A DNA stretch of 63,916 bases, counting the filler, from Collodictyon triciliatum (lineage: Eukaryota): NCBI GenBank assembly GCA_043381765.1. It is 8 parts of 8 records of this genome, joined end to end, with 100 filler letters (N's around TTAATTAATTAA, not from the genome) between each part and the next. Parts side by side here need not be neighbours in the genome. Positions count along the whole stretch, not along the records: positions 44,339 to 53,095 come from JBHJMP010003295.1; 7 more parts are not named here. The stretch is one strand, 5' to 3'. Every line of letters starts with the position of its first letter. Positions within the stretch are counted from its first letter, which is position 1. Shown piece after piece: positions 8,661 to 62,071 of this stretch. Under the pieces are notes generated by a model that saw only the letters and a program-made list of their open reading frames with translations, was not told the origin of the DNA and ran no database searches. Both the position numbers and the translations under genes were made by a program.

Positions 8661-8672
8661 CTGCATCAAATT

Positions 8673-8768
<96 letters not shown>

Positions 8769-13630: not shown

Positions 13631-17400
<3,770 letters not shown>

Positions 17401-26514: not shown

Positions 26515-26724
26515 NNNNNNNNNNNNNNNNNNNNNNNNNNNNNNNNNNNNNNNNNNNNTTAATTAATTAANNNNNNNNNNNNNNNNNNNNNNNNNNNNNN
26601 NNNNNNNNNNNNNNTTGTTTTTTGTTTTTTGTTTTTTGTTTTTTGTTTTTTGTTTTTTGTTTTTGTTTTTTGTTTTTTGTTTTTGTTTTTTGTTTTTTGT
26701 TTTTGTTTTTGTTTTTTGTTTTCG

Positions 26725-28722
26725 CTAAGAGTTGGCCGGAATTCTCTGGACAACAACATTTTCTGTAATGAAAAGCATTCGCCTGGGATTCCTTCGGTAA
26801 GTCCACAAAAATCGTGCAAGGAAAACAGCACATGAAAAAGAAGCACTGCTGAACATGCTTCTTGCGGATATGAGAGTGAATCCATACACACGCACATTTC
26901 TTTCGTTCAAGAACATTCGTCCTAGCGAAAACTTACTGGCGATAGAGATGCCGAGCATCCAAACGATGCCGAATTTTGATACGTGCGTCAACTCCCGCCT
27001 AGATAATCTGAACGAATCAATCATCATGCACCAGTAGAAAGCAGCAAGGATGTAGGTAATGTAAACCATTTGAATTCCCCAGTCGCAGATAATACCATAT
27101 GAAATAAATATTTTGATCATGAGATACAATACATACCAGAAATCAAATGAGCGAAACATATGCTTCACAAGAAAGAAGTTACTTGTGAGTATTATTTGTA
27201 CGCTGATAAAAATTGTAGAGATAACTGAGCATGAAACCGTAATCCATGTATAAGAAGCCTTCGTCTGCACTCCAATTATCATCGGAAAAGAAAAGAAATC
27301 GGATATTACCCCCAAGGATATACCACACACTTGGTAGAATTTCGAACGCAAAACCAAAGAAAGGATTGTGAATCTTTGCTTCACTATGATGTGGTATATG
27401 GTATGATTTAGGTTGAATCTCAAAGACTTTTCCACTAGTACTCCCAATACCAGATAATTATCGGTATCGTAATTGTGAATCGAATTGTTTGAGAGGATTT
27501 CATTTTTATCCCCTGCAGGAATTATTGCCTCTGCATTCGCTATAACATCCTTTTTATCTTCTTTTGTTTTCTTGCTTGGCCTGGGCTTCGTATATTCATG
27601 ACTCGAGATATTTACATTCTGATTATCTATTTGAACTTTTGTGGTAGATGCTGATTGAATCTCGTAATAACTAGATATAAACGCTATTTCTCCTTCTTTC
27701 TTCATGATTAAGTGATTATAAATAATTCTTAGAAAGTATATGATGACATTTGCTAAGCTACTTATTGCCCCGTCCCTAAAGTTGATTATTTCAATGTTTA
27801 CCGAATTGTAACTCCATGATTTGATCTCAGGAGTAACAAAGTCCAGTTGAATCGAAAACAATATTATTGAGTAGCACAATATCCCAACTATTGACGATAC
27901 CTTATGTATCGGAATATTTTTGGATGAATGTGCATCGTATAAAAGAAGATTGAACACCAAAGATGCTAGAGAATGGAAAATTGCAAGTGCTGCCTTTAAT
28001 GATGGGCCCATGATAAAGAACAAGCACAGGTGGAATATAAGCATATTAAACATCGTGTACCAGAAGCTGAATGTTTTTGCCAGAGATTTGGCAATATCGA
28101 TTCTTATCATCGTCGAATGACCGATGCAATAGTTGAAAGGCATTACCAGCAAGACAGGCACATAAAAATTGCTAGGAAACAGAACCTCCTTGAACATAAA
28201 AAAGTAAAACATGACGGAGCAAAGGCCCCATATAATTGCCATCGAAAGAGACACCAAGCGATGTCTATAGAATCTGGTTACTATATTACAAGCTCTTCTA
28301 TTTGTTACCATAACAGACAGCAAATTCTTTCTCCTGTGCACGTATGACTTTGTCTCGTAGAGTATGAGCTTAATCCAGGTGATTTTCGGCTCTTGGATTA
28401 TCTCTGTATTCATATCTTGGATGGAGTTGTGTCTTTTTTCTTGGCCCCTTTCTATCGCATCCGCCCTGTCGTTCTCTTGGAGAGGGTTTGTCTCTGTCAT
28501 TGTCCGTGTGGCGTTGGTGCCATCCGCGAGTTGATTATCCCTCACACTTTTTGCATCACTGCCTGCGGGGCTGCAAATATCCGGTGTGGGATGCTGCTTC
28601 ATATTTGGGCGATCTAACCCACCATACGCCGTCTGTGAAGTTTTGTCGGCATCAGCAACAGCAGTCTTTGCAGTGACCTGGATATCATTTGTCCACGCAT
28701 TGTGCAATACCCGACCTTGCAT
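26725..28722 (-). CDS. intronless multi-pass membrane protein with two internal FxFWY repeats
   Basis: Single uninterrupted ORF (first ATG 28722); halves contain KSLAKTFSFWY and KHMFRSFDFWY, each followed by several hydrophobic helices. Confidence 0.8.
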   Translation of the reverse strand: MQGRVLHNAWTNDIQVTAKTAVADADKTSQTAYGGLDRPNMKQHPTPDICSPAGSDAKSVRDNQLADGTNATRTMTETNPLQENDRADAIERGQEKRHNSIQDMNTEIIQEPKITWIKLILYETKSYVHRRKNLLSVMVTNRRACNIVTRFYRHRLVSLSMAIIWGLCSVMFYFFMFKEVLFPSNFYVPVLLVMPFNYCIGHSTMIRIDIAKSLAKTFSFWYTMFNMLIFHLCLFFIMGPSLKAALAIFHSLASLVFNLLLYDAHSSKNIPIHKVSSIVGILCYSIILFSIQLDFVTPEIKSWSYNSVNIEIINFRDGAISSLANVIIYFLRIIYNHLIMKKEGEIAFISSYYEIQSASTTKVQIDNQNVNISSHEYTKPRPSKKTKEDKKDVIANAEAIIPAGDKNEILSNNSIHNYDTDNYLVLGVLVEKSLRFNLNHTIYHIIVKQRFTILSLVLRSKFYQVCGISLGVISDFFSFPMIIGVQTKASYTWITVSCSVISTIFISVQIILTSNFFLVKHMFRSFDFWYVLYLMIKIFISYGIICDWGIQMVYITYILAAFYWCMMIDSFRLSRRELTHVSKFGIVWMLGISIASKFSLGRMFLNERNVRVYGFTLISARSMFSSASFSCAVFLARFLWTYRRNPRRMLFITENVVVQRIPANS

Positions 28723-29309
28723 TTTCTGTGTATGTGTGGTTTGGTTAGGTTGTGTGAGGTGGACATCTATCCTCAACCTATGTCTCTTGCTATATGTTTG
28801 GTTCCAACACAAAACATCTTGGTAATGCGCGTATTTTATCGTCTGCTGCTTGTCAGATTTTGGGAGAAAGAGGTCGCACTTTGCAGATCAAATCTTGCCT
28901 ATCAAAAAAAGCGTCTGATTTGGCAATCTGCCAACCTTCCTCGGTCTATGGTAACTTACACATTCCCTTAAATCACCGAATGGATTTGTCTCGTTCAGTG
29001 TAATTATTCCACATATGTATTTTAACGTTTTCCGTTGAAACGAATCAAACGCGCCCCTTTTTTTCAATCTTTGCCCCCAATCAGCCTGATCACATCAGCA
29101 ACTCAACACAGTCACATACCTCGCATCACTGACACCTCAAGAGAGAGGGAAATAGAGTCTATGCAAAGAAACGCGGTGAATAACCCTGTACCTTACAATG
29201 TCCGTGGATTCTTCCAGGAACAAGAGGAAGTCTAGCGCCACCAAATCAAGAGTGTCTGTAGACGAGACCTTGCGCCTGACCCGAGGAAAGCAGTGGCAAA
29301 GAAACAAAC

Positions 29310-35072: not shown

Positions 35073-35476
35073 TTTTTCTTTTCAACCTTTCCTCTGTTTA
35101 GAGTCATTTAGCTTTTTGCTTTGGTTTGAGATAATGTCTTTGGAAGGGTTTCCCGTTCAAAATCCAGTGTTTCGGACGCGCAAAACAGAAAATGAAAAGA
35201 AGGAAGGGATGGATTTGTCTGATATTTAATTCTTTGCAATAGAAAAGAAATCTTCACCTCTATCAAGGATAATAAAATTGACCTTACATTGTTTTTTTTT
35301 TGTTTTTTTTTGTTTTGTTTTGTTTTGTTTTGTTTTGTTTTGTTTTGTTTTGTTTTGTTTTGTTTTGTTTTGTTTTNNNNNNNNNNNNNNNNNNNNNNNN
35401 NNNNNNNNNNNNNNNNNNNNTTAATTAATTAANNNNNNNNNNNNNNNNNNNNNNNNNNNNNNNNNNNNNNNNNNNN

Positions 35477-35910: not shown

Positions 35911-38479
<2,569 letters not shown>

Positions 38480-38921
38480 ATCGCAGGGCTCGGACACACG
38501 CATTTGCAAAGGTGGCGAAGTGAAGCGGCTTTGCCTTTTCCACCAACTACTTGCCTTTTTTTTCTTCTTCCTTTCCCTCCAACCCTTTTCTTCTTATTCT
38601 CTCCCTCAAACGCCTTCCTCGCCTCTCACCACCGACCCCAAGTGTCGCGGATTATTAAACCCACACAGGCCCGGTCATTGTCGCTCAGCCGCACCCCTTT
38701 CGAATCCACGGCGCTCAGAACGCTCCCTCGCTCGACCGATTGAACACATCGCAGGGCAGAATAAACTCAGAGAAGAACGGTTGCTCAGTCGAGGCACAAA
38801 CTCGAACAAGTTTAATGGGGGTTGAGCATGACTTTATTATTATTGTTTTTTTTTTTTAAAAAAAAAGTATAAGAATACTTTGATATGAGAACAGACAGAC
38901 ACAACACCAGAGAAACATGTC

Positions 38922-41600
38922 CTACATCTTCGAGACGATTCTTTTCTGGTGCCCCATGGACGATGACTGCGTCGCGTTGGACACGCTCTCCACCAGCCGC
39001 GCAAGAGACGGAGGCGCCTGCAGTAACTGCAACAGAGCGCGCAAGTCGTCTGAATCGTTGTATATGTGGAAGGAGATGCGGAGATACAGCGCCCCGTAGA
39101 GGAGTTTGACAGGAACTTCAATGCGGCCGATGTAGTGGAGATAGTCTTGGATGAGCTTGGCGTGCTCCGAGCGAAACGCGTTTGCAGGATATGGAGATTG
39201 ACAAGCTTCCATGATGGCGCGGGTGCGGTCCTCCGGGATGGCGAGACATGCCATCCACCCACACCGAGCCAGGGGTACAAGCCATGTTGTGTTGAGCCCC
39301 GCTCGCAGAATGCGGTCGGCCTCCAGCTTCAAATCCTCGATGTATCTTCGCACAACGTCAACGCCCAATCCAGTCCAGAAGCGCATGGCTGCGGATAGAG
39401 ACAGGGCACTGCTATAGTCCCTGGTTCCGTCCCAGATGAACTCGCTCAGGAAGCCCTCGTGATACCTGGTGGGTAGTAGGTCGTGAAGTGATGAACTTGT
39501 ATCTTTATGTGTGTGTGTAGTATGTATGTATGTATGTATGTATGTATGTATGTATGTATGTATGTATGTATGTATGTATGTATGTATGTATGTATGTATG
39601 TATGTATGTATGTATGTGTTTAGGCTGTAGCGCTGGCTCCCGCTCTACTTTGTCCTTGATGGTACAGGTTGGGATTGTGAATCATTTACCCGTGTGATGC
39701 CAGAACATGATGCAAGGATGGCTGTAACTCTTTTTTGACGTACAGCAAGCCGACGCCCTATCGATTTTATGCATACAATCTTACAAATTCAGGGCTATGA
39801 GGAATTTTGGTGTACAATTAATACGTTTGTTTGTTCACGTAGAGATTAAATTACAGTCTTATTTATTTATTTTTTGTTTTGTTTTTGGAACAGTGATAAG
39901 CGCAAGTGCTTGTGAGGAACTCGAAAAAGAGTGAAATAAACCTTTGCAGAACAAAACCATTTATGACAGTTTGTAATGTAGTAGTCCGCTCCGAGTTCTT
40001 CGAGATTTAGTGTCGTGCTTAACAACCCATGGGCACCATCGATTAAAACCTCAATCCCATGCTCATGACACAACTCAATCAGTTCTTTGATGGGCAGTAC
40101 CACAGCTAAGAAAATGCCGGTAAATTAATGAGTATTGATTACAGCTAATTGTACCTAGACTTAGTTTAGTGTCTATCGATAGGTAATAGTTTTCATGGTT
40201 TTTTTTCTTCCTTTTTGATAAAGGCACGCTTTATCCAACGTTTTTAAACCTGTGTTGCTTGTGACATGATCAAATACGGCTAGACGGCACTTGTGTGGTA
40301 AATTGTTTCTCACAAACTCTAAGATTGTATCTTCTCGAGCCAAACTGTTAAAGTTGATTTCATTTTCTAAGCGATATATTTCCGTACTTAAATTATTCCA
40401 AGAAAAAAAATATATGAAACGAATGGGATGAAGAAGAAAATAAGAAACACTAACAAACAGAAAAGCTGAGCAGAATAATTGAGGAGAAATATCCAATTTA
40501 GTTTCATCATAGTATTTTATAAACATTACACTATTTATTCGCCAGTGAGTCATGACGAAAGAGTTCATGCTTTGTACAGGAGAAGAAGAGAAAGGAGAAT
40601 AGATAGACATCTCTACCTTTGAAGAGGTATATTGCCTTCGATATATTCTGCATTCTTGGAGCGACAGGTGAGCTTTAAGAGCTTTTTAAGAGATCCGTAG
40701 GACACGTCTAAGGCGAAAACCGAATCTCCTTCTGCCAATTGAACAGAACTGACGTATTTGTACACAAGATTACACAGCAACATGCAGTAGACCAAGCACA
40801 TTGATTCTCAAAGGAATGCATATTGAAAGGATTACGTTTTAAAAAAAAAACATACAAAAATATGAATCAAAGTACGAAAAATAAACAGATAAAAAAAGAT
40901 AGACAGATAGATAATAATTATCAGCGGCTACCTAATGACGGCATTGAAACCACTGGTTGCATTCTGCACAAAAACAATGTTTTGCGGATCTGAGCCAACA
41001 AATGAACTGATTTCTCGCAGACTGCGGACCATGTGTGGGAAAAGCTTCCGGTCAATCATGCGCAGCGGCTGCTCCTCTGTGTAGACGCGCCAGCGCTCGG
41101 CAAGGGCCATGACGGGCTTCAAAGAAGCTCCAAAAGCGCCGTGGTTCAGGAAAGTGTAGGACTGGTCCAGGAGGAAATGCTTTGCCAGCCCTTTTTTCCC
41201 CCACTCGCCAACCACCTGTTTGAAAAGTAACGTCTTGATGTTCAGTTCCCACTCGTGGCGGTCGGGCAGTATCTTCTTTTTTGTTCCTTATTTACTGCAG
41301 TTATCGACTTATTTTGTTCTGCCTATTTCCCAAGATGACAAAAAACAAAGATATGCTTTTTCGTTAACAGATGAAGACGCGAATCATACTGTTTACAAGG
41401 ATATAGAGAAAAAAGAATACATGGCAGGGGTCGTCCTCTATCCACTCAAAGGGCAAACTAGGAGGGACATATAAACTCTTTGGAATTTTTATCAGGTCTT
41501 CGACATTATCTGAGTGGAAGGAGCCAAAACCCTTGTATTGCGACCCGCCCGCAAGGGATTCGACCCAGGCTTTTGCATCAGGGGCTAACGGCTGATCCAT
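38922..41600 (-). CDS. class V PLP-dependent lyase (Egt2/L-cysteine desulfhydrase/isopenicillin N epimerase family), multi-exon
   Basis: FLNHGAFGA; FVQNATSG; FDHVTSNT; LIDGAHG; YYITNCHKWFCSAK (PLP lysine); FIWDGTRDYSA; YLRISFHIYN. Confidence 0.88.
39521..39617. repeat. (TATG)n microsatellite, intronic
   Basis: Directly visible. Confidence 0.95.
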
Positions 41601-43473: not shown

Positions 43474-45036
43474 TGTCTTTTCTTTACTTTGATCATGACA
43501 CAGTCGACGGGAGCTGAGCGAACTGATTCATCTATTTAAGCCGCCTTTGGAACGCTTCGATGGAATAATACAAAGAAAATGTCTTTAGTAACACCCTTAT
43601 GAAAGAATGTTCTGTGATGTGGTTATTCTCTGCAGATACAATTAATATTATATTAATTATATAATATATACTAATAACTACAAAAATAAATATTAAGGTA
43701 GATTAAGTAATATTATTATAAATTCCATCTTAGAGCAATCACAAAACCCAGATATTGCATTTGTCCACAGACCTGTTTCGTAATTTCGGGGTATTCAGAC
43801 GGTGAAACACACGAACATACAAGACAATTGAGTTTTTTTTTTTTTTTGTGTGTGAGAGGAGCAGCGACGGATGGAAAAGATTGAAGCGAAAAGATATGGA
43901 AGCAAATGAAAAACAAGATAACGCGGGGCGTAAAACAAAACGACGAACAGTTTCAATTTGCGCAATCCACACCGATCGACAAGGCCGCCTCGTTTTGTTT
44001 CTCCATGCTGCCTTGTCTTGTGCGGGTTGCTGTATTTCCAGTCGGCACATTTGTCCTGGCAATAGATCTTCCGGCTGGAAATAATTTGTTTATAAGGCTG
44101 CGGTTCGACAAAAAACCTAAGATCAAAATAAGAAAATATCAAAACAACAAAACAACAAAACAACAAAACAACAAAACAACAAAACAACAAAACAACAAAA
44201 CAACAAAACAACAAAACAACAAAACAACAAAACAACAANNNNNNNNNNNNNNNNNNNNNNNNNNNNNNNNNNNNNNNNNNNNTTAATTAATTAANNNNNN
44301 NNNNNNNNNNNNNNNNNNNNNNNNNNNNNNNNNNNNNNAGAAAAAAAGAGAAAAAAGAAAAAGAAGAGAAAAAAGAGAAAAAGAGAAAAAGAGAAAAAGA
44401 GAAAAAGAGAAAAAAAGAAAAAGAGAAAAAGAGAAAAAAAGAGAAAAAAAGAGAAAAAAAGAAAAAGAAGAGAAAAAAAGAGAAGCAAGAAAAGAGTAGT
44501 TTAGGAGGAAGTGAAAGAAGGGAAAGGCTTAGCCCTCTTTTGAGTTCCGTCAAAAAACGAACCGATCACTCACCCTCTCGCTCACTAAAGCAAAGCAAAA
44601 GCCGCTCATGTGTTTCCCTTCTTTCTGTTTTAATCCATAAACCGCATACTTCCCTGCGCCAGAAACCTTTTCCATCACAAACCACAAAACCAAGACACAA
44701 AACACTGCCCTCTAATTTAAGAAAAGAAAAGAAAAGAAAAGAAAAGAAAAGAAAAGAAAAGAAAAGAAAAGAAAAGAAAAGAAAAGAAAAGAAAAGAAAA
44801 GAAAAGAAAAGAAAAAGAAAAAGAAAAAGAAAAAGAAAAAGAAAAGAAATGTGGTGGGCGATAGCAGTCTCTGATAACGATTTGGTAAAAGACAAAGAGC
44901 TAAGGCGTAAAATATAGTACATAATATATCAAAGTTTTCTGCCGCTTCTTTTTCCCCCGCGTCACTTATTCCGGCCTGATCAGGTTCGAAGAAAGCAGAA
45001 GGCGTGAGAAAACCACATCAAAACAAAAGCGTGACG

Positions 45037-47118
45037 ATGAACGCAGTGTCGATTTATGTCCAAGCGTTTTACTCGGTCAGTGGAAACTTTGAAGCTTCTC
45101 TGTCTGCTCTTCTGCCAATCCTCTCTGGGTTCGATGCACACGCAAAGGTTTATACATAACTTGTCCGTCGCATAGAAAGATTTTCTTTTTCCTATATTCG
45201 ATCCATTGCATAGATAGATGTTCTTTTTTTTAAAAAAAAAAGAAAATAAAAAAGGGGATGGAATCCTGTTTTACCGCCATTGTATCTTTAAATGTTTTAA
45301 ATAAGCTTTGTTGATGTTTTCAAATGTTTTATTTACATTTTGAAGCATGCAGACATTAGTACAATAGGCTGATTTTGTATGATATGTACAAAGATATTGC
45401 ATCCGTGCTGACTCTTTTCTTTTTTCTTTTNNNNNNNNNNNNNNNNNNNNNNNNNNNNNNNNNNNNNNNNNNNNNNNNNNNNNNNNNNNNNNNNNNNNNN
45501 NNNNNNNNNNNNNNNNNNNNNNNNNCTTTTTCTTTTTCTTTTTCTTTTCTGCTCCTTCTGCCTTCTTCCTATCTGCTTCTGCTTTCAATATCTATCTCAC
45601 ACATCTCATTGTTAATGAATATGCGGGTCAATCACTATTTAGGTATCTGAATTATTTTCTGCCATTGACGAAACTGTAATAGCCCAAATCAAGACGTTGT
45701 TTGCAATCAACTACGCCTTTGAGACTTCCATCATCGGACAAGTACTCAAATCGATCATAGACAGCGATAGACTTTGTTTTGTGTCCAATTAAAAAAACAA
45801 TACATTTGACGTCTTATCCAACTAGATTGGACAAGAATCTATAAGTCCCAATTTTATACTCACTAATACAATTTACATCCACCCAAAAATCATCCAACAG
45901 TTGAAGAGAGTAGAAAGTAGAGCCAAGAAGATTTATGGGAATGAAGAATATCGCATCATGCATTCAAAAATTCTCTTGGAAAAAACGTTTTCTCTACGGA
46001 AACCGTCCAAAATACGCGGTACACCTTTTGGAACCATAACAAAGAATCGCCTCGAGACAATCAAAAATGAAGTAGGACGTATTCCGTACACTTTACCTGC
46101 AAAATACAGGATACCTGGCGAAATAAAGACGTGTTTTTCCTTCAAATTACTGGAAAACCTCAAAATATCTTTCAAAGATGAAGCAAGCTGCATGCTAGCG
46201 ACAAGAAAAACAATTAAGGAGCTCGCCTTTGCTGATATTCCTATAGACTCATATGGCAGGTGGGTTTATTCCGGATTTTGGAGCATTCCTCGGACAATCG
46301 ATTCTCTGGCCGGACCTAAACGTAAGGTTGGAAGTCGAGGCTCAGGAGACGAGCAATTCAGTCGGCCTTTCGGAATAGCGATTTCCCCGGTTAACGGCAA
46401 CATATATATCGCAGATGCAAGAAATGGGCGAATTCAAATCATATCCCCAGACTTGACCTTTCTTTCACGTTTTGGAGAGCAAGGCATAGGCCCAGGTCAA
46501 CTGATGGATCCATCCGGCGTGGGGTTTTCATTAGACGGATCTACATTGGTTGTAGTTGACCAAGGAAACCACCGAATTCATCTCTATACGCACGAAGGAG
46601 TTCTCATCCGCACAATAGGTGCCCAGGGGCATGAAGCGTATCAATTCAATAGACCTTACTTTGCTTCATTTGACCAAGAAAATAATTTCTATGTAAGTGA
46701 TTACCGAAATGAAAGGGTTCAAAAGTTTAGCGTGGATGGAGAGTTCATTCAATCAATAGGCAATGAAGCAAATGCAAGTGCAACCGTTGGTATGGTTTGT
46801 GGAATGATGATAAATGATGCCAACGAGCTGATGACTATTTCAAATCCGGGGAGTATCGTCAAGGTGTGGTCTACAGACGGAACTTTCTTGCGTGAGTATC
46901 ATGTGGAGACCACGATGAACTTGGATAATTACCTTGGGCGCAGTGTCGATGGTGGCTTTATTCTTACAGACTACGGAGGAAACAAGGTGACATTCTACTC
47001 TTCAAATGGGGAAAAGCTCCAGCAATTTCAGTTTCCTGGTCCTGTTGGAGCCGAGTTTGATTCACAGGGGCGTTTGTATCTCCCGTGTTGGAGCGAGTCC
47101 TACTTTACTGTTTGGTAG
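45037..47118 (+). CDS. NHL-repeat beta-propeller protein with unknown N-terminal region, about 3 exons
   Basis: GSRGSGDEQFSRPFGIAIS..IYIADARNGRIQII; GPGQLMDPSGV..VVVDQGNHRIHLY; QFNRPY..YVSDYRNERVQKF. Upstream in-frame exons at 45037-45147 and 45643-45741. Confidence 0.88.
45431..45525. other. internal scaffold gap (95 N, no stop linker)
   Basis: N run flanked by TTTTTC repeats inside the NHL gene's first intron. Confidence 0.9.
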
Positions 47119-47983
47119 CGATTAGCTCGAGCAGCTAAAGATAACAGCATTTTGGGAACTAAATCGCTTCAATAAAAAGAAATATATAAATCCGCCATTT
47201 TTTTTTTCATTCTCTTGGAGCGTGTCAATATGGAAGATATCATATTTTTTATGCATTTGGATACACTGATGGGTTTATGCAAAATTCTTTTGACGGGATG
47301 ACGTTTGATGAATACATTTTGCAAATGGCATGATTATACCCATGTCGCTGCTTATTGCTGTTGCTTTGTTGTGTATAGAACAAGATACGATTATTAGAAA
47401 GTTTCATTGTGTTTTTATATCCGATTTTGCGGCTGACAATTTATGAGAATATCCTTCGTTAGTGTTATATATTGATATAGAATCGCCCATTAGAGCGCAA
47501 TTTTATTTTCAGATGCAAGGCCCTTTAAAGGTTAAAAGGCGAGAATGAAAGAGGGCATCGAGATAGCATATAAATGATACTCCATAAAAACGACGAATAA
47601 CTGGAACTAAATTTGTGAAACGCCCTGCAGAGGAAAGATATTTCCATGGGCCAATCGGCTCAACTCTACTCTTCTTCGTTCATACTCGCGAACCTCGCTG
47701 ATGGGACTAGAAACACACAAATAAGCAGAGTTATATATGGCTCTGTAGGCTCGTGTGTTTGCTATACACAACTCAAAATTCAAAATAGCATGGCCTATGC
47801 ACGATGTAACAAATGATTGAAAGGTGATGATGACGCACCGCATCAGTTTCTCGGAGATAGACACAAGGTTGATATAGAGCGCCTCTAGAGCACCTATAAC
47901 AAAGTGAATGGAAATCAAAATTCACGAGTTTTTCTTGATGAATTTATTGTGTGTTGGATAGAAGAAAACTCGAGAGTAAAAAT

Positions 47984-50900
47984 TCAGCATTTAACCATAC
48001 CATAGTCTTTTGAATCTTGATACATATCAATTCGCTTCTTCAAGCTTCTGTAAATCAACCCGTGGTACTTTGGGTTGATTTCCAATATAACAGGTAAATA
48101 TATGGTGGCATCTTTGTAATCCTGTGTATTTCATAGATAAAAAGTAAAGGGTTTAATTAAACCCCCAAATAAAGCATGCCAGTGGATTATAGTCAAGAAT
48201 GTTTATGGTCTTTTTAATTAAAAAATCCACATATTTGGTTTCAGATTAACTATAATTTTATCACCTTCAACAGCGTTTTCCACAAGTATTTGCCTTTTTT
48301 AAACAGATACTGGTCGTATTCCTTATTCATTTTCCAAACAATATTTGGAGACTTCCCAAGGAGCCTGCATGCTTCTTTCAAGCCAACAGACCTCATGAGT
48401 TTTTTCTGGATTTCTTCGTGTTCGTAACCTGCTATATTCAAGGCTTGTTTGTAACCATTCAGCATCTCTTCCATCAATTGGCGACCATACTCGTCTACTT
48501 CATTTTTCTGGCAATGTTTTCGAAGTTCCCCAGAAAGGGCATCTGCATACCGAACCCAGCCTTTGGTTTTTTCGGACTCATCGTCCAAATATTTCTCGGT
48601 AATAATATCCCCAAGACTCTGAGCGTAAGATTTTTTGAGGTGGTATCTGTGATAAGAATAAGATGAAAGTCGGAAAGTTTAAATAATGTATGTATTGGAT
48701 TTTATTTTTGGAGTAGATATTGAGAATATAATGATGATAACCTGTTGTTATTTATATGAATCATTCCAGAGTTTTCTAATACGGAAAGAAAAGCATCCCT
48801 TAACGAGGTGTGCCATATGTTAGAATGCGTATTAAAATGCTCGTGCATTCAGAATTATACAACACCACAAACAAATCATATAAATTACTGTTGTAGCTTA
48901 TCCGATGACCCCTCCGATATACTCGATATGTAATCCATCAAACAAGTACTGTTAACTCCATTTTGATCGGAAAGGTACACAGGAACGAGGATACCTTCAA
49001 CTGTTTTGGTACCTTATTATATGGCAAATCGAGTAAGGAAATACAATTAATAACTCTATAATAAAAAGAAAAAGGAATCAGTTAGGTAAAGATAATGACT
49101 TAAGTAGCAATAATACCATAGCTTTTAGTCCATTGTTCGATTGTTAATCTAATAATTTTGGTGTGACTTTTTTTCCCCAAATACTGGCGAATCATATTTG
49201 TCACTTCCTCAAACTTGCCAAAGTTTACAATTTCTGACAAGAAAAATCGAAGGGTAACCGGATTCACTATGTTGATATTTTTAGTGCATCTATAATGATG
49301 GTTTTAAATATATAATACCATAGAATGATGTTTTTTTATTTGTGTGCACATCGCGAAAATATACAACAAATAGAAGGAAATAAAACTAGGCTAGACTCAC
49401 AAATGGGTGAGTTTTCCTTAATGCCTTCTTCTAATATGGTCTCCTGTATTCTGGAGAGACATTTTGAATTTTGGATCATCTCATCTCTGACAGTATCAAT
49501 AACTTGCTTCTTGGATAGATTCCCGATGGTTGGCTGTGTATTAATAACAATTTAAAAAATTACAGTAATATGATTCATATGTGGTTTAAAACATCTGATT
49601 TTCTCTTGATGTATCCCTTATGATAGTTCTTATCACATTTCACACCTCCTCAACGTAATTAGGTGGACCAAGCTATATCATATAGGTTAAAATCATGAGA
49701 AATTAATAAATAGATAAGGTTGTGCATCTACTGCCAAATACGGTAATCATTTTATTTGATATTGTCATTTAGTTGATGTTCGTTGATAATTTGTCTTTAA
49801 TTATTTTAAAACCTGAAAATCTGCCTTCAGAGCATTCAATACGTGATTTTTGACCATCTCTATTAAATCAGAAACTCTACTGCTGGGAAATGAAAACACA
49901 GGATAGTGTGCTTTAATGTCATTTTTTAAATTATCTTGAAGTTTTCTGTCCCTTTCATCACCATTTGCTGTGGCGTCCTAAGTATTTTAAAAATTAAACA
50001 TACACAAATACGAAGGTATCTAAATTTTGTCGCCAAATGTTTCATATGACAGAAACTTCCATACGTTGCATGGGATTCACAATTGTGTTATTACTTTTTT
50101 TTAAAAAAAAAAAACGACTTTCACTCGTGGATTACTTACTTCGATTTTTTCGTAAAAGAAAACACGGTATGAGTATGGCCTTTCAATGAAGGCTGCGGCT
50201 CTAATCTAAACGATGAATCAAGAGGCCATATTAAAAGACACAAGTCAAATTTTGGTGAAAATTGAAATATGTTTACTTCAAATTCCGTAGCACTCGTATC
50301 AAGAGGGAAATATTTCGTCCATTCGTATCGAAGAGATGTTTCTTTTGACCACTCTTCTCTGGAATTTCGATTTGGAATCCACCCAAATCTTCAACAAAAA
50401 AAAACCCTTTTGAATTTAAAATAAACGATTGAATGATGCATAACTGTGATCAAAATTTTGTGTTAAAGGCTATATACCTGGAACCGAGGAAACAAACAAA
50501 GTATTCAGAGTTTTCAACCTCATCCAAACACCTTCTCATGGTCTTTAATTCATTTTTTATATAAAAGGTAAGGACTATGTGAGAGGAAAATATATAATAA
50601 TTTTAAAAAAAAATAGTGTTTGGTTGGACGTTTAATATTTTTACATGTCCTTTTTGTGATTCTTCAGGCGTTACACCCCAGCGCAAGTCAGCAAAAGTAA
50701 TTTTGACTCCTAAATATCTTCCCTGCGATATAATCCTATATATATTTATTAAAAAAAAAATGTAACAATAAGAATCACACATAATGGTTTGGTTGAATAA
50801 AGTTAGGGAATGAAAAGAAAAAACATCAAGAGGTGGAATCATTTAGGTGGGAAAAATACCATGGTTGAGCCAATCTTGTGAACTGCTCTCTCACATCTTT

Positions 50901-52942
50901 CATATCGCTAAAAGTAGAAGATAGAAATATTTTGAGTTCTCTTTTCTCTTGGACGATTGGTCTCATGGAATCTTTGACAGTTCTATTCCCCTGAAAATTC
51001 TCAACTAAGGAATTAGTGGGAAGTTTGTAGTCCTTGTATTGATATTGTCGTATAATACACCCGTTTGTACAAAGAAAGGCTTCCATACTGGGGTTCCAGT
51101 CAATTTTTTGTTGTAAACCGCATTTGAATATATAAAGATTCATTCCTCGTTGTTCGTAGGGAAGACGCTTCATGCACTCTGGGCATGCGATACCCTCTGA
51201 AATGGGCTTCTCATTGTAAATTTTAGTAAATATTTCGCTTACCAGAGTTTTGACAGCAGATAATGTGCACAAATTCTTTTTCGTTTTGATTTTGATAACT
51301 ATCTTTTGACATAATGGAAATCGAACAACTGAAGTGGAATCCTGCTTGATTAATTAGATGTGAATAAGAATATTTTTTTTTATGAAATCGGTACTTATCA
51401 TATTACTAGTAGTTCAAGGTTGATTAATGAATAAAAGATTAATAAACTTACCGTTTTGTTACTAAAAAAACGTATAAAGATGTCAAAATCACTCCCAGAA
51501 GATATTTCAGCTCCTTCTTGACTGCCTTTGATTGAAATAGGAAACACCAAGACACTTCTACTCAAGAATATTCCGTCGTAACTATTTCCACCAGTGTTTA
51601 TTCCAAGAAGTGTAATTATTCGTACGAGAATTCTGCTGAATGCAGTTTTTGGAATAGTCGACGTATATTGTATCACATAGCTAATAGACTCTACATCTTC
51701 TGCGCTCTCAAGCCATTTTCCACTAGGTATGTCATCATTATCTGGTATGAGAAGGGGGAACAACTCTATATTTCCGTGACGAAATGAAAGTCCAAATGAT
51801 CGGAATGTGTCAATTACTATTTCAGCAAACTCGTTTTTCTTTGAGTCGAGACTGTCTCTCGGAAGTGATTCTTTCACCTGAGCTATCAAAGTTGTATACT
51901 GAAAAACTCCTGGATTGATATCAGATAACTCCAAGTAGTTGAAGGTAAAAATTGATCGGAAAGCCCTTATAAGGATTTCGGGTTCAACAAAAATGATCTT
52001 CTCTAATCCGTTCCTGTTATGCCAAGCTATGGCTCCGTTATCATTCAGGAAACAAAGTGCTGACCTTGTTTCACTTGCACTCATGGTATAGTTCTCTTGG
52101 CAAAAGGCTTCGATATCTTGCAAAGAAATCCATAGAATATCTTTTAATCTTTGGGTTTCAAAGTATTCCTTCAATTTGTTATATTTACCAGGAATCAGCT
52201 TACCAACATGAGGCATCTTTACGATTATTTTATTTATTGTGGATTTCAGGGTTTCGATTCCTTCACCAGTTTTATTACTCACCGCAAAATGACCAGAAAT
52301 ATGTATAATATTTCCATATTTTGAACAAATTCTTGAGTATTCTCGATTACATTCTTCCTGGACCTTAATGAGGTCTTCTTGGGGCACATCATCAAGGCGA
52401 GTGCCAACAATCAGGACGAATGCATTGGTACAGTTGTAAGAAACCATTTCGAGCCATTCATAAACGTCATTCATGAGAGGAATGCTGAGCATCGAGTAAA
52501 CGATGACAAGCAAGCATCCTTGTGTCAGGAAAAATGGGTGGGTGGCGTGGAAAATATCTTGTCCACCAAAATCCCATATCTTTGCGGAAACAATGGGTCT
52601 TGATAATGATAGTGATATTTTTGATTTCTCTATTTCTATTCCGGCGGTTCTTTCTCTATTTGCAATTAGAGTGCTGTAGAATCCACCTGTGATAGATGTG
52701 TCTTGCAATAGAGATTTTCGCAGCGTAGTTTTCCCTGTTTCTCCAGCACCAAGAAGCATTATCCGTCCTTCAGACCACAAGACATTCTCTTTTTCTAGTA
52801 GTTGTGAGTAAAGAAAGTAGAATAAAGCTTCACTTCCGCGCTTTAGAACTGCTTGTGGAACTGTCTCAATCGAGTTCGACTTATATTTGAGACCTTTGGC
52901 CAACTTTGGTAGGTAACCAAGAACTTCGGGGACATGTCTGAA
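47984..52942 (-). CDS. ROCO protein: (LRR)-Roc GTPase-COR-Cys cluster-DUF4062-like-unknown C-terminal domain, 5' end missing
   Basis: P-loop LLGAGETGKTTL; RTAGIEI; IWDFGGQDIFHATHPFFLT; IVGTRLD; VSNKTGEGI; COR ALCFLNDNGAI, FPLLIP, IPKTAFSRILVR; then KIFLSSTFSDM, ADLRWGV, CLDEV, FLGSRFGWIP, SATEFEI. Confidence 0.88.
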
Positions 52943-52998
52943 CTAAAAATGTAATTATGAAAATATGAGTTGAATAGTAGGTTTTATATTTTTAACAC

Positions 52999-53095
<97 letters not shown>

Positions 53096-53339
53096 NNNNN
53101 NNNNNNNNNNNNNNNNNNNNNNNNNNNNNNNNNNNNNNNTTAATTAATTAANNNNNNNNNNNNNNNNNNNNNNNNNNNNNNNNNNNNNNNNNNNNTTTTG
53201 TTTTTTGTTTTTTGTTTTTTGTTTTTTGTTTTTTGTTTTTTGTTTTTTGTTTTTTGTTTTGTTTTTTGTTTTACTGATCTGGAAATCTAAATATAAAAAT
53301 TGCAATTGACATGTTTGGTATGACAACGCTAAGGCAGAT

Positions 53340-53520: not shown

Positions 53521-55567
53521 AAACTCTGTTGGAATCATCATGCCTTTTTCCTTGAACCAATGGAAAGGCAGGTAGTTTTTCTTTTTCTTTTTTTCTTTTG
53601 GTGGTTTCATTAGCAAAACTCGATCATAGGCGCAATTATAAAACATAACTATGCTAAACGTGTTCCCTGTGTGTATAAAAAAATATTTTTATGGTTGTCA
53701 TTCCTTTTCGAAAGATCAAAGGCCTTTTGCTGTTAAACTTGACTGACTCCAGACATGGAACCAGAAAAAAACATGTAAGTTCACAGGGTTAAGAATAATA
53801 TGAAGCATGATTGAAAGGAGAACAGAAAACAAAAAATGGTTACTTTTTTTTAAAAAATTCATATTGGTGTATTATTTTATCTTTCATTCAAAAAGGGGAT
53901 CTCTTGTTGGTTTTGTGTTAATGCTATAGCAGGCTTCGCCTTTTCATAATTTGTTTCGAAGTAGACGTACAGGAAGCAATATGTACAAGAATTGCAGCTC
54001 TGTAAAAATATTTAAGCTATTTACGATAATAATACCATTTGATCAATTAATCCGAAACGCGTCCATTCTTAATCGTAACACTACCTCTTAGTGTGGTTTA
54101 TTCTCCAACGGATCCAATAAGAGTGTGTCGATTCCTACATCATAAATGTCATAAATCTGACCACTTTTGACTGGCCGCAGCAAGTCTTTTTTTATTCAAA
54201 AAATCTTAGCTGTTGAGCCCGTCTCAACAATCACAGGCCGTAGCAAGTTCAGTTAAAATGCATCTCAGTTAACTTAAACGCTCGTGCGCATCTGAGTTTT
54301 GGTTTCATGTATTTGTAGGTGGAATTAACTTAAAATCTACATAAATAGTTCCTTGGAGCATCGGGGATAGATTCGATAAGTTAAGTAATTCTTATGGATC
54401 GAAGACCCTCCTAATCTGAAGTTTTGGAACTTTATATTTTCATATGACTGGTAAACCACACAAAACAAAGCATAAAATATGATATTAGCCATTATTATAA
54501 AATATGTTATTTTAATATTTTCATCTCATTTTTAAAAAAAAATTTTTGATTAATTAAATGCCATTTTTCGAAAGTGTGTAATCTTACCATAGATATTAAT
54601 CTTACACAAATGAACAGATTGATCTATGTACGAAAAGGATAGAAATTGTAAATCTTAAAGTATTTTTATTCATATTGAAGTCTATTGACTCACCTGTTTT
54701 ATTTGATGAAATCAATTCCGCGAATAGATGTTTCCCCCGTCTTTTTTCAATGGCTTTTAATAATAAGGGCGGATGCTTCTTTTTCATATCTTAGCCAAAT
54801 TATCAAATTATATCCATATAGTTTGAAGAGTTATATCACAAATAGTAAAAAAAAAAAAAAAAACAAATTAATCTGACTTTGTATAAATCGTTTTGATATG
54901 ATCATATTCCATGGTGTAAGAAATCAATCCAAGAATCCGAGATAACAAGATATATATTCTCTTTAATACGATTTATTACTATCTGATATAACTTCATCCA
55001 CATAAGAAAAATTATCTAATCATAATCGAGGGAATTAATGAATAAATTCAAGCTAAATGCTATATTTAAAGACTTGATAATAATGAGAAGAATTACACAT
55101 ATTCTGTTCTTTAGATACTTGAATTACATGGACTCAAAAATCCACCTTTTACCCATCGCTTCATTTTAAAGCAAAATGAAATCAAAAATATAAAATAGCA
55201 TCTTCTGTTCATAAAAAATAATTATTTATATTCTTTTCAGAGAATGTTTTATTGGTGCATAATTGTAAACCTAGTAGATAAAATGACAATAATTCAAATT
55301 GAACGACTATGTGTTGAACAAAAAATCAGTTATTCGCGTAGTAAAAAGTGAATTTTTTTAAATATATTCGATGTAACTAAAAAAATTAAAATCAGAATGT
55401 TATCAAATGTATCAATTAATAATTCATGGAATATAAAATAAATATTTATATTGTTTATCTGTATTGATTATTGAATTATATTTTTGCGGGATTTGTAAAA
55501 AAAAATTGAAATAAGAGGTTAACTATTGATAATCGTTTGATGGAAAACTTGAAAACATAGGTGCTTC

Positions 55568-58500
55568 ATGATAAAGCGAGCGATATCTTTCCTTTTTCTC
55601 CTCTTGGTTTTATCTGACTCAGTACAGTCAACAAATAGGTTATTTTTAACAATCATGCTCTACCTATTCTACTTTTTCTTAAACTTAATAATTAATAGAT
55701 ATACTTGCCGTTACACCAGAGATGAATTGACCACCATGAAAATCGATGATGCATTCCAAATACTTTTAATGCTATATGAAGATTACTGTCCTTCAACTCA
55801 AGCTGATATCATGAAGAATGTGGATGGGGAATGCTCTTATCTGGATGAGAATGCTATTCACGGAGCAATTTACGAGACAAATTACAAGGAAGAAAATTAT
55901 GAAAACAAAGAATTTTTCATACATCCGAAGAAAATTGCAACAAATATGGACAAGGCGTCAGCAAATAACGTGTTGAATGCATATTTGATTCAAAATCAAT
56001 CTGAGCTTCTCATCGAACTTTACAACCTACTTGACGGAGATAATTGGACTGATAATAGAGACTGGAAAGATAGCACTGTTCCAATTTGTCGGTGGTACGG
56101 GGTAAGGTGTGATATGGATTGCCCTGATGAAGATTTGGAGGTAAGGGATAACAAAAATTATACCTGTTTCATGATAATTACTAACTTTATGAAAATAGAA
56201 CAATAGTTGTCCAGTTGTTGGAATGATTATGCCCATGAATAATCTTCGTGGTGATTTTGGACCCGTCTCTTCTGTATTCGAGCAGCTCCCCTTTCTAACT
56301 CTGCTTGATTTGAGTTTAAATTCAATTTATGGCAGCCTACCAGACCTAAATCTTCCAAATTTCTCTCATTTCAATATGTATGATAATCAAATAAGTGGTG
56401 CAATACCAGACTTTCAAAGAATTCCGAATATTGAGAGTCTTGAAATTGATGAGAACATGTTAGAAGGCACTGTGCCTGATTTTTCAGGAACGCCGTTACT
56501 AAAAATTCTGTGGGTTGGTTCGAGTGAAAAGTTGACAGGTTTGATAAAATATGTATAATTATTTATTCATTAAAAAATTATCAGAGATTCACATTTATCA
56601 TCATATTACACGTAAGGCACTTTACCAAATTTTTCGGGATTACCAAATGCTCAAGTCATTGGTATATATGGAAGTCGCATTCATGGTTTGATATAGATAT
56701 TCATAAACTTCTTAATTCATAAATGTATTCCATAATTAACGTCAAGCTGAATAGCCAAACATATTTCTTTCCGATGAAATCCCAGGGACTGTTCCTGATT
56801 TTTCAAATGTACAAAATTTGTATGTTCTCACCCTAACAAGCAATGAGTTTCATGGTTAGTAAGAAATTGTGAGAAACATACTGCACGATATTGGTTTTAA
56901 CTTTATTGTTTAATTTTACTAGGCCATCTTCCAAATTTTAGTCAAATACCAAGAGTTTTATATCTTTACCTTTACAACAATTTGCTTAATGGTAAGTTTA
57001 TACAGAAAAGATTATTTTTGTATCTCTTAAAAAAAATAATGATGAAAGAACGATTTTCACTCAGGAACGATTCCAAATTTCAGTAATGCTCGCAGTCTGA
57101 TATGGTTGGGATTATCTAATAATCTTCTATTAGGTAGGATTTTAATGTATATTCATAACTGGATATTCAACACTATTAAAATAAAATTAAAACGTAGGAA
57201 CAATTCCTGACTTTAGTGAAACAAACCAATTGGAGATGATTTATCTCGATGGAAATCATCTTTATGGTACATATTTTTACATTTTATCCAAAGGAATTAC
57301 AATAAATACAAATTCTATGTCAGGAACAATACCTGGATTTCAGCAAGTCTTCAATTTGGTTTCCATTTATATTTCTGGCAATGAATTGGAAGGTAAATAA
57401 TCGTTTGGGTAATCTGAAACGAACGTATCACTTTTAAAATTGTACTTTTTCAGGGACCACTCCAGAATTCCAACAATTTTTGAAACTGGAACATTTATCT
57501 GCTTACGACAATCACATCAAAGGAGCAGTTCCGAGTTTTGAAAGCTGCCCTACTTTAAAAGAGATCGTGCTCTATAGAAACCATTTGAGTGGCACCCTTC
57601 CAACATTCAAGCTACCTATGTTATGGAATTTGGATCTTAGTGAAAATGGTATCACCGGCTCTATTCAACATGATTGGCAGATTGATTCGATTGAATACAT
57701 TGACTTATCCAGAAACAGAATGAATGGAACTATCCCAAATGTGTTTGAAAACTTACCCCAGTTGAAATCAATAACTCTGTCACATAACCAATTTTCGGGA
57801 GCTATGCCCATCAAATTTTGGAATCAGGATAGCTTGATATCGATTGACTTGAGAAACAACTCCTTTTCAGGAGATGTTGGTGTTTTCATAGTGACTCCCT
57901 CAGGAAATTATGATTACAATTATGAGAGTCTTGTACTTGACCACAACCGGCTCCATGGTGTTTTTAATTGGAGAATATTTAACAATTTACTGAAGGTAAA
58001 AAAACTAAGTCTTCAAAACAACCAGATCAAGGGACTTGACGAAGTTACAAACTTACTTCAATGGAACTCGCTTGACTTGTCTGGAAATCCGATAGTTGGG
58101 GCAATACCTGAATCATTTAGTAAATTTTCGAAACTTGAATATCTAGGACTGAAAAATACGTCTTTGCACCATGGAAACTTCAACTTCCTTCCCGATTTCA
58201 TGGACTTCACAGACCCCTTTAATTTGGAAGATGAATCGAAGCTCTACATCTGCCCCTCTATTATTTCTAGATCTGGTTTGGTTGAATTGGATATTGCCTT
58301 AAATCCGGAATACTACGACTACGAATTTTGCAAATGTTTGCCTGGGTACATAGGATTTGGATACACATGCGTCCAGTGCCCACAGGACTGCGAATGCCCA
58401 GACGGTAAAACTTTGAAAGGTTGTCACGCTTCGCCTTATGTGACATCTATAAAATCAATTATTCTTTGCCCACAACCGGAATCATGCAAAACTTCGATTC

Positions 58501-60012
58501 CGAGTAAAATTTCAAAGTCGAACAAGACCATCATCATCGATGAATTATGCGAAAAAGGATATGAGAGTCGCGCATGCTCTAAATGCCAAGATGGCTACGG
58601 CAGCCGGGGAAGAACTTGCGTCAAGTGTGAAAACATGGAAACCTATTTTACTTTGACTCTCAGCTTTATTGTATTTTGGTCTTTTGTAATCCATTTATTT
58701 CGCTCAGAAACATCGAAATCAGGTTAGTGATATTATGACGTAGTATTCAAAGCTGACATCTAATATATACTTTTGATTTAGCTAAGCTAAGAATCATCAT
58801 GTTTCACATGCAAACACTTTCGATCGTCTCTTCTGGGCTCGTTAAGTCTGAAAATGCAAGTTACTTTCTCGACATTTCTTCATCGATAGGTTCGATTCAA
58901 TTTCCCAATGTATCATGTGCACTTGGAGAGCTAGGTATGTTTTATTCCCTCCTGATTAGTTATGGACGGATACCCCTTTTTACAATTGCTGGCTCAGCTG
59001 CGTATTATTTGGGGTATGGGCATAAGCAGGATAAGGTAATAAAGTAATTGTTGATTTGGTTATTGTGTCTGTATTAAATAAGCTAATTTGAAACCTTGTA
59101 TACGCTAGGCTGTTTTTATTGCCCTGAATCTTCTATTCTTCATTTACTACTCGGTTGCAAGGGACGTCTTTGGCGTTTTTGGATGCACTGTATATGATGA
59201 CGGAGAAAGTGTTTGGTTTTTGAATTACGCACCATGGATTAGGTGCAGCCCGGCATCTGACGAATATCTGAATTTGGTTGCATTGTCAGTCCCAGTTTTG
59301 GTTTTCTTCCTGGTTGGATTTCCAGTTTTTGTTTGGTGGAAAGTGAAAATAATGTTCAATAGACCTGGATACGAGTCAGAAGCGCGATATGGATTTCTAT
59401 ACTTGCCATATAAAGAGGTATAATGTGTTTCTCGAACTAATGAAAGCATCTTAATTCCTTAAAAACACATGATGCCTTTGGATAAGGCACTGTACTAACA
59501 ATCTCCTTTAGAACTTCAAGTACTGGGAGTTTGTCGTCATCGCTCGTCGAATCGCCTTTTCATTCATCCTTAGTGTCATTCCGTACACAAGTCCATCTGT
59601 TTTTTTCCTTCTCCTTGTGGTCGTTATTCAGGTTTGGAAGCAAAGCATTTTCCTTTATGATTGCTGGGAGAGAATTTTTATATCGGTTCTAAAAATGTAC
59701 GGTTATATGCAGGGTTCAATTTGGATGCAAAAAGAGTACATGCCATACAACTCGAAAATTGAAAATCAAATGGAACTTTCCAGTTTGTATATTATTTTTG
59801 TGTCGTTCTTTCTAGTCCTTATTTCGACCTTACTCGGGTCTCAATCCTGGATTACTGTTTTGTTGATTGGAATGAACTCAGTGTGGCTGCTCTACTATGC
59901 AAGCATGGCATTTATCATTCCCCTCTTCAGGAGCAACACAATCAAGAGGGGTCTATTCAAAATGAAAAGTTTGACTAAAAGAGCACAATTACATGACCCT
60001 CTGCTGGATTGA
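55568..60012 (+). CDS. LRR + Cys-rich + ~7TM receptor-like protein (paralog B), apparently complete
   Basis: Signal peptide; LRR N-cap LYNLLDGDNW..W...ICRWYGVRC; roughly 20 LRRs; CKCLPGYIG Cys-rich region; TM module with FGC..LNYAPWIRC, RYGFLYLPYK, YWEFVVIARR, PY...ENQME; stop TGA 60010-60012. Confidence 0.9.
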
Positions 60013-61971: not shown

Positions 61972-62071
61972 NNNNNNNNNNNNNNNNNNNNNNNNNNNNN
62001 NNNNNNNNNNNNNNNTTAATTAATTAANNNNNNNNNNNNNNNNNNNNNNNNNNNNNNNNNNNNNNNNNNNN

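Follow-up and report, generated by a model that had tools for sequence, protein, structure and literature searches.

Roc-COR proteins are nucleotide-dependent dimerising switches. In prokaryotes, proteins that combine leucine-rich repeats (LRRs), an AP-GTPase (Roc) domain and COR have been described with a C-terminal slot for at least 24 effector types, TIR and DRHyd among them (Kaur et al., eLife 2021, PMC8195603), and Aplysia ROCO proteins with a canonical TIR are on record, so that ROCO plus TIR also occurs in animals (PMC9334734). DUF4062 was shown to be a TIR-like NADase only in 2026 and has been described in eukaryotes almost only in the N-terminal position of NLR-like STAND proteins. 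Human TEP1 hydrolyses NAD+ and NADP+ through this domain in an E1008-dependent manner (Osinski et al., bioRxiv 10.64898/2026.05.01.722283), an independent report describes NAD+ depletion by the TEP1 domain that is lost in E1008Q (Le Mouellic et al., bioRxiv 10.64898/2026.09.04.749371), and bacterial DUF4062 proteins also hydrolyse NAD+ in a Glu-dependent way (10.64898/2026.05.01.722283; 10.64898/2026.09.04.749371). Here we describe a gene of Collodictyon triciliatum (GenBank assembly GCA_043381765.1) in which Roc and COR are followed by DUF4062. It lies in a window of 63,916 nucleotides (nt), the whole stretch of DNA that was analysed, on contig JBHJMP010003295.1 (window positions 44339–53095, with an inner gap at 45431–45525). 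We consider it fairly probable that this is an expressed, intron-rich eukaryotic ROCO gene with an output module of the DUF4062/NIR (TIR-like NADase) type in place of a kinase, with putative NADase activity and a putative immune role.

The gene and the systems of Kaur et al. are alike in that a single polypeptide unites sensor repeats with a Roc-COR switch and, at the C-terminus, an effector that processes nucleotides or NAD+, the LRR part and the activity being predictions in the case of our gene. As described, those systems are bacterial and intron-less and carry a canonical TIR_2 or DRHyd (PMC8195603), whereas the window gene is eukaryotic, has at least 14 introns and combines a eukaryotic NLR-type DUF4062 with a STAND-derived helical tail. 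Because it is eukaryotic, with 14 spliceosomal introns of which four are confirmed in RNA-type contigs, the gene is not a prokaryotic AP-GTPase system; it follows the same domain logic as the AP-GTPase conflict systems without being a member of them. In the ESM Atlas, where clusters are leads by features and not alignments, the nearest were clusters of bacterial Roc + COR + TIR_2 proteins (scores 0.81–0.90); bacterial clusters of some size there include Roc + TIR_2 (79 members) and Roc + COR-A + TIR_2 (52 members).

TEP1, NWD1, NWD2, NPHP3 and TTC41 carry a homologous DUF4062 with the catalytic Glu, as the window protein does. In proteins of this type, as described in the cited texts, the domain stands N-terminal to a NACHT/STAND ATPase accompanied by TPR or WD40 sensors, whereas in the window protein it stands C-terminal to Roc-COR without a STAND ATPase. 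LRRK1, LRRK2, DAPK1 and other eukaryotic ROCO proteins share the Roc-COR core with the window protein, which has neither their kinase nor a death domain, and the effector of the Aplysia ROCO proteins is a canonical TIR (PMC9334734), whereas that of the window protein is DUF4062. Neither a eukaryotic Roc-COR-DUF4062 protein nor a double-switch form with an additional STAND NTPase was found in the literature searched (main texts; supplementary tables not covered). Among three DUF4062 preprints, the words 'roc' and 'gtpase' were absent from the main text, as was 'roco' in the two checked for it, and co-mentions of 'DUF4062' and 'Roc' elsewhere were incidental. The parts, and the logic of a ROCO switch with a TIR-type effector, are already known; the combination and its lineage are new.

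The gene runs on the minus strand from 52942 to 47607 in 15 exons, with 1193 codons followed by a TAG stop. The frame is open throughout, all 14 introns (71–279 nt) are GT-AG, and neither spacer nor N occurs anywhere in 47607–52942. The model was built from open frames and splice signals with tblastn as a guide, and residue numbers below are those of the spliced model. Residues 4–1184 align in one piece with residues 982–2179 of P0001, a protein of 2181 residues from a Diphylleia rotans transcriptome (E 1e-168, 31% identity over 1255 columns). As read from the model, the domain order is a predicted LRR part (upstream, off the contig), Roc, COR, a zinc-ribbon-like cluster, DUF4062 and a helical tail. 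An earlier sequence-only reading had placed a ROCO GTPase fused to a DUF4062-like domain at 49880–52942. This range does cover exons 1–7; the gene runs 2.3 kb lower, with eight more exons and its stop at 47607–47609. The upper limit of the range, 52942, marks an intron acceptor and not the start of the gene. The contig breaks off in a microsatellite 153 bases beyond it, at 53095, and this end cuts off the 5' part of the gene, which the window does not contain.

Exon 1 (51452–52942, minus strand, with AG before 52942 and GT after 51452) encodes residues 1–497, that is, the end of the LRR or linker, Roc and most of COR. The Roc GTPase (52391–52765, minus strand, residues 60–184) matched PF08477 with 61 bits against a cut-off of 27 (E 1.6e-16). 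A motif scan found its motifs intact, with G1 GAGETGKT at residue 65, G3 DFGGQ at 124, G4 TRLD at 181 and G5 SNK at 222, the last lying just past the domain match. COR-A (51770–52192, minus strand, residues 251–391) gave 27.9 bits for PF16095, under its cut-off of 35.3, and Pfam COR-B had no match in the window at E up to 1. In colinear relatives COR-A passed the cut-off (P0001, 50.6 bits; P0017, 36.2; P0018, 35.6; P0019, 42.4), and a Foldseek search with a predicted model of P0018 matched the COR of LRRK1 and C. tepidum Roco structures (8e05, 6hlu, 3dpu and 3dpt; E 8e-5 to 8e-4). With an intact Roc and COR directly after it, the window gene passes as a ROCO protein. NCBIfam returned only generic LRR and small-GTPase matches, far under their cut-offs.

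Exon 2 (50860–51341, minus strand, residues 498–658) joins the two halves of the protein: it encodes the tail of COR, a Cys cluster, and DUF4062 as far as its first strand and helix. A 46-nt mini-intron considered within it (about 51200–51245) was rejected; it breaks the frame, and P0001 aligns across the site without a gap. The Cys cluster reported earlier after Roc-COR is present entirely within this exon, as C550 and C553 (CPEC), C571 (KC), and C588 and C592 (CTNGC). Its core, CPxC...Cx3(C/H), lies between COR and DUF4062 (51057–51185, minus strand; C550, C553, C588 and C592). The first three positions are Cys in six of six ROCO-type proteins, and the fourth is Cys in the window protein and His in the five Diphylleia proteins, a pattern that may reflect a zinc ribbon; C571 sits in a window-specific insert.

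The remainder of DUF4062 is spread over five further exons on the minus strand. Exon 3 (50645–50735, residues 658–688) carries the DLRWG motif as ADLRWGVTPEE and is GT-AG, in frame and colinear with P0001; exon 4 (50478–50542, residues 689–710) reads YFVCFLGSR, whose Arg is the equivalent of TEP1 R976; exon 5 (50277–50388, residues 710–747) ends in SATEFE; exon 6 (50140–50205, residues 748–769) holds the R.FFY strand; and exon 7 (49813–49977, residues 770–824) the last helices of the region. All strings quoted by the sequence-only reading were recovered on the minus strand, with CPEC, KC, CTNGC and RELKIFLSSTFSDMKDVRE in exon 2, ADLRWGVTPEE in exon 3, and two strings running across splice joints, RRCLDEVENSEYFVCFLGSR joined to FGWIP at exons 4/5 and SATEFE joined to I at exons 5/6. 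Judged from the alignments, the coincidence of these motifs with the one-piece match to P0001 is far beyond chance.

The assignment to DUF4062, which was likewise upheld, draws on several comparisons. Our Pfam search was run on single exon pieces, and the PF13271 pieces fall short of the cut-off of 24.7 bits, as the domain is divided among six exons (2–7). They are in register, exon 2 matching profile positions 1–21 (19.5 bits) and exon 4 positions 35–64 (23.8 bits). In BLASTP, the spliced domain matched the NLR-like proteins P0011, P0012 and P0013 (E 6e-31, 5e-31 and 1e-15), which themselves score 43.6, 42.9 and 55.3 bits for PF13271, above the cut-off, at the matched places. The same region of P0001 matched PDB entry 11gz ('Telomerase protein component 1'; E 2.3e-13). 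A 39-residue read-through of exon 5 searched against PDB gave no TEP1 match and only a chance match (E 4.4). That the domain is TIR-related and adjoins NACHT in TEP1, NWD1 and NPHP3, as had been stated, is also what the two 2026 preprints say, and they add NWD2.

The putative active site centres on E747, the last codon of exon 5 (50277–50279, minus strand), which aligns with catalytic E1008 of human TEP1. For 11gz_A, the chain index was taken as the TEP1 residue minus 893, deduced from Arg at 15, 61 and 83 (R908, R954 and R976). On this numbering, E1008 is the second Glu of the TEMEV motif in that chain, and its counterparts in the alignment are the second Glu of the P0001 motif and, in the window protein, E747. 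Across our conservation set of ten aligned DUF4062 domains (six ROCO-type and four NLR-type), neither Glu of the TE.E motif varies.

We examined how far this architecture extends. With exon 1 as query, a word-based search of longer proteins returned nine matches, of which only P0001, 33% identical over 99% of the query, contains DUF4062. When the COR-to-DUF4062 part of P0001 was used as query, eight matches were returned; P0001 and P0010 combined Roc, COR and DUF4062, and the other six were NLR-like. Exhaustive HMMER comparison of the junction exon 2 with 1,835,955,588 representatives (E up to 0.001) retrieved only P0017, P0001, P0010, P0018 and P0019, five clusters whose 13 member sequences are all EukProt records of one transcriptome, that of Diphylleia rotans. 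The junction scan tests likeness of the joint and not architecture, so a ROCO-DUF4062 protein with an unrelated linker would be missed. No bacterial protein matched exon 2 among the 1.84 billion representatives, and a metagenome scan with exon 1 gave 169 pattern matches, none of which was confirmed.

By Pfam, P0001, P0010 and P0017 read LRR-Roc-COR-DUF4062, and P0018, which is N-terminally cut, reads COR-DUF4062. P0019 reads LRR-Roc-COR plus AAA_16, with a divergent DUF4062 that is not found at E 0.001 but aligns. All five Diphylleia relatives have the order, Cys cluster and junction of the window gene and are colinear with it over the whole length; P0001 and P0018 read LRR-Roc-COR-DUF4062-helical, and P0017, P0019 and P0010/P0024 have a STAND NTPase in addition. 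The window protein is only 31–33% identical to these relatives and is without the STAND NTPase of three of the five Diphylleia genes. None of the main texts searched contains a description of these transcripts; supplementary tables (Table S5, Le Mouellic et al.) may list them. According to that report, EukProt v3 holds 1,751 eukaryotic domains, 'the vast majority' of them N-terminal in NLR-like proteins (10.64898/2026.09.04.749371).

The LRR region is not in the contig. All four N-terminally complete Diphylleia relatives have long LRRs, and one RNA-type contig (X1 record 4) matches 52863–52942 and then continues for 218 nt that have no counterpart in the window; at the start of this overhang, 30 nt that occur nowhere in the window encode, when read in the frame of exon 1, an LRR-like motif. 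From the overhang and the relatives we infer an LRR N-terminus. The layout of LRR sensor, GTPase switch and effector proposed earlier was therefore recovered in its Roc-COR-DUF4062 part within the spliced gene, and its LRR part lies off the contig. That DUF4062 takes the place of a kinase after Roc-COR was borne out, the spliced gene containing Roc, COR and DUF4062 and no kinase. Neither the tails of P0001 and P0018 nor the largest tail exon of the window gene showed a kinase, death or other Pfam domain.

In P0017, P0019 and the long isoform of the P0010 gene, P0024, DUF4062 is directly followed by a second P-loop and a STAND NTPase of AAA_16/NPHP3_N type. These three proteins hold two nucleotide switches in one chain, a ROCO/NLR hybrid of which no description was found in the literature searched. 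The window model has one P-loop, that of Roc, and no STAND NTPase next to DUF4062. Its residues 4–824 align with 643–1449 of P0017 and its residues 862–1031 with 1673–1841, so that about 224 P0017 residues holding the NTPase face 38 window residues. The two aligned blocks part at the joint of exons 7 and 8, the site of intron 7 (49534–49812, minus strand), which at 279 nt is the longest of the gene and stands where P0017, P0019 and P0024 have the STAND NTPase, a domain of about 220 residues. A tblastn comparison found no remnant of the NTPase in the contig, its best E being about 1.

The helical tail begins in exon 8 (49401–49533, residues 825–869) and continues through exon 9 (49117–49266, residues 869–919), which has a tblastn match to P0001 1858–1910, exon 10 (48889–49000, residues 919–956) and exon 11 (48742–48798, residues 956–975), all on the minus strand. 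Matches to the tail were found in the NLR-like proteins P0011 (E 1e-7) and P0013 (E 5e-4), in both cases behind the NTPase, and the post-NTPase regions of P0011, P0013 and P0017 are homologous to it. On this alignment evidence, the tail is a remnant of the helical region behind the STAND NTPase of DUF4062 NLR-like proteins. The window protein is nevertheless not an NLR, because a STAND NTPase with its P-loop is absent. An AlphaFold model of P0018, built from alignment A1 with eight sequences (mean predicted local distance difference test score (pLDDT) 76.6; predicted template modelling score (pTM) 0.60), showed a predicted domain of alternating strands and helices at 350–551 with good confidence and a predicted all-helical tail with one beta-hairpin. 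With the whole chain of this model, Foldseek ranked the COR of LRRK1, LRRK2 and C. tepidum Roco first (E 8e-5 to 8e-4) and weakly matched STAND proteins such as 6mfv, APAF-1 and NRC2 (E 0.013–0.14).

We built a tree from the DUF4062 regions of ten proteins, with P0015 and P0016 left out and with an arbitrary rooting on P0013 and P0014. The six ROCO-type domains fell on one side of a branch with support of 92/93, recovered in 90% of bootstrap trees, which fits one origin of the fusion of Roc-COR with DUF4062. Inside the ROCO-type group only P0001 + P0018 was supported (95/98), and neither the position of the window protein nor a loss of the NTPase shared with these two had support from the tree.

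To assess expression, we placed RNA-type contigs from three small public runs of one study (X1, X2 and X3), whose RNA nature is a guess, on 47600–53000 and obtained eight pieces. Four of the 14 introns were removed to the base in X1 or X2 contigs (51342–51451, 48122–48264, 47894–48000 and 47707–47838), and the four confirmed joints read CT..AC on the plus strand, that is, GT..AG on the gene's strand. Since intron-less contigs can come only from RNA or cDNA, the gene is transcribed and spliced. The intron between the Roc-COR exon and exon 2 (51342–51451) was removed in an X1 contig. At the 3' end, on the minus strand, the intron downstream of exon 12 (48265–48646, residues 975–1102), 48122–48264, was removed in an X1 contig; both introns flanking exon 13 (48001–48121, residues 1103–1143) were removed in X1 contigs and only the downstream one (47894–48000) in X2; and the intron after exon 14 (47839–47893, residues 1143–1161), 47707–47838, is known only via X1 and X2 contigs. 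Removing this last intron leads into exon 15 (47607–47706, residues 1161–1193, with the TAG stop codon at 47607–47609) and extends the P0001 alignment from residue 2133 to residue 2179 of 2181. X1 record 2 (51451–51897) shows 6 mismatches to the window in 447 positions, four of them residue-changing, and may represent an allele or a very close paralog of the COR region; the remaining X1 and X2 contigs match the window fully or almost fully. A 51-nt X3 record joining 50615 to 50095 was set aside as spurious, with three mismatches.

These comparisons suggest a mechanism. Oligomerisation activates TIR-type NADases, the TEP1 domain among them, and the specific activity of the isolated TEP1 domain rises with concentration (10.64898/2026.05.01.722283). 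In the window protein, the LRR part would sense a ligand; Roc-COR, as a nucleotide-dependent dimerisation or oligomerisation switch, would respond with a change of bound nucleotide and of assembly; this would gather the DUF4062 domains, which could then hydrolyse NAD+ via the conserved E747; and the cell-autonomous signal that follows would be one of defence or death. By analogy with these families, we infer that GTP controls the effector, that the domain acts as an NADase and that the protein has an immune role. More tentatively, and as a possibility that falls somewhat short of probable, in one eukaryotic lineage the role of switch in a TIR-like NADase receptor may have passed from the STAND ATPase to the Roc-COR GTPase. 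Diphylleia would then keep the double-switch forms (LRR-Roc-COR-DUF4062-STAND-helical), and the window gene, P0001 and P0018 would be derivatives from which the NTPase core has gone, in the window gene at an exon joint, with the helical stump kept.

Several observations weigh against an enzymatic ROCO-DUF4062 receptor. In the window protein, the COR-A match and the Pfam DUF4062 pieces are each under curated cut-offs; the Foldseek search with the whole P0018 chain, in which DUF4062 was not searched alone, brought up no TIR entry among the 50 matches listed; and PADLOC, which would assign defence families, gave 0 matches. Only one of the three TEP1 active-site Arg is kept, the R976 equivalent. 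The R954 equivalent is His, and the R908 equivalent is Ser in the window protein, non-Arg in six of six ROCO-type domains and Arg in four of four NLR-type domains; R908A lowers TEP1 activity, as does R976A (10.64898/2026.05.01.722283). Read from the alignment, the active-site Glu is kept and part of the TEP1 phosphate-binding set is not. Purified NWD1, NWD2 and NPHP3 were reported without NADase activity despite carrying the domain (10.64898/2026.05.01.722283), and of five eukaryotic domains screened, toxicity in E. coli was reported for that of TEP1 only (10.64898/2026.09.04.749371). The lost Arg equivalents, the inactive human proteins, the toxicity screen and the PADLOC result would all suit an architecture that is real with a DUF4062 that is non-enzymatic. 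The domain would then be an oligomerisation surface or an adaptor, as may also be the case in NWD1, NWD2 and NPHP3, and the protein would have a part in ordinary signalling (cytoskeletal or ciliary, for instance, as with other ROCO or NPHP3-type proteins) and not in NAD+ depletion. We regard this account as unlikely, though it carries appreciable weight. The inactive human proteins may simply need activation, as their authors also consider (10.64898/2026.05.01.722283), and the TE.E Glu pair, the R976 equivalent, DLRWG and R.FFY are kept among paralogs only about 30–48% identical, which argues for selection on the active site.

Whether one gene is at hand at all bears on the same reading. X1–X3 cover only parts of exons 1–2 and exons 12–15, leaving exons 3–11 without any contig, a further point against it; because no RNA contig covers them, continuity across these exons rests on homology only. 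The single transcript proposed earlier is supported across the exon 1/2 joint by a spliced contig and by exon 2, in which the tail of COR and the first strand of DUF4062 occur together, and is not covered through exons 3–11. This gap, together with a fragmented assembly and a window that is a chain of contigs, could suggest that two adjoining genes (ROCO and DUF4062) or a chimeric assembly have been taken as one. Such an error is extremely improbable given that COR tail and first DUF4062 strand share a single open exon, that the spliced contig links exons 1 and 2, that no spacer or N interrupts 47607–52942, and that five independent transcript clusters of another data set show the same order. 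It is also very unlikely that the gene is a decaying double-switch (Roc-COR plus STAND) receptor in which NTPase loss was a step towards a pseudogene. The missing STAND NTPase, present in three of five Diphylleia genes, is what such decay would leave, but 1193 codons run without a frame break, 14 of 14 introns are canonical, spliced RNA-type contigs exist, and the P0001 and P0018 transcripts share the NTPase-less form with full-length open frames. An expressed ROCO gene with a DUF4062 output module of the TIR-like NADase type remains the reading we prefer.

The window gene overturns nothing already known; through it, eukaryotic biology is connected to the 'ROCO plus TIR' sensors that were predicted for bacteria in 2021. 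Together with its double-switch relatives, the window protein could be used to ask whether an oligomerisation-dependent enzyme that is not a kinase can be gated by Roc-COR, and NAD+ loss would be a tractable readout for Roc-COR activation, of interest to the LRRK2 field. If replacement of the STAND ATPase by Roc-COR were true, the window protein would be the first eukaryotic GTPase-gated NADase receptor, and the set of proteins would form a natural series in which one could follow the exchange of the nucleotide switch in innate-immune receptors.

Other features of the window were recorded alongside the gene. On the same contig, a gene for an NHL-repeat six-bladed beta-propeller (45826–47118, plus strand; Pfam NHL, 55.6 bits) is convergent with the ROCO gene, the 3' ends lying about 490 bp apart; its best database match is only 38% identical. 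The window consists of contigs of about 8.76 kb each, chained by seven artificial spacers of the form N44-TTAATTAATTAA-N44 at 8769–8868, 17636–17735, 26515–26614, 35377–35476, 44239–44338, 53096–53195 and 61972–62071. The spacer at 53096–53195 (no strand) marks the end of the gene's contig, directly after a (TGTGTA)n microsatellite. Because the window is made of joined contigs, neighbours beyond 53095 or below 44339 are artificial; most contig ends in it are simple repeats, and gene neighbourhood across spacers is meaningless.

On other contigs, and unrelated to the ROCO gene, lie plant-type LRR genes at 55553–58727 (plus strand) and 6876–8673 (minus strand), with LRR_8 matches of 71–73 bits. 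A kinase catalytic-loop fragment at 15129–15320 (minus strand) matches the kinase part of an unrelated ROCO kinase (E 1e-4) and probably belongs to an ordinary kinase gene. Open frames of 561, 351, 418 and 720 residues in 17736–21974 (plus strand) and 26725–28887 (minus strand) had no Pfam match at E up to 0.001, and Rfam gave 0 matches on the whole window. At 37634–38825, open frames overlap on both strands, with no Pfam match for the one tested. High-G+C islands at 12001–14000 and 36001–40000 reach 46–53%, against about 33% elsewhere. The LRR gene at 55553–58727 has a Cys-rich stretch and a hydrophobic segment after its LRRs, which gives it a receptor-like look.

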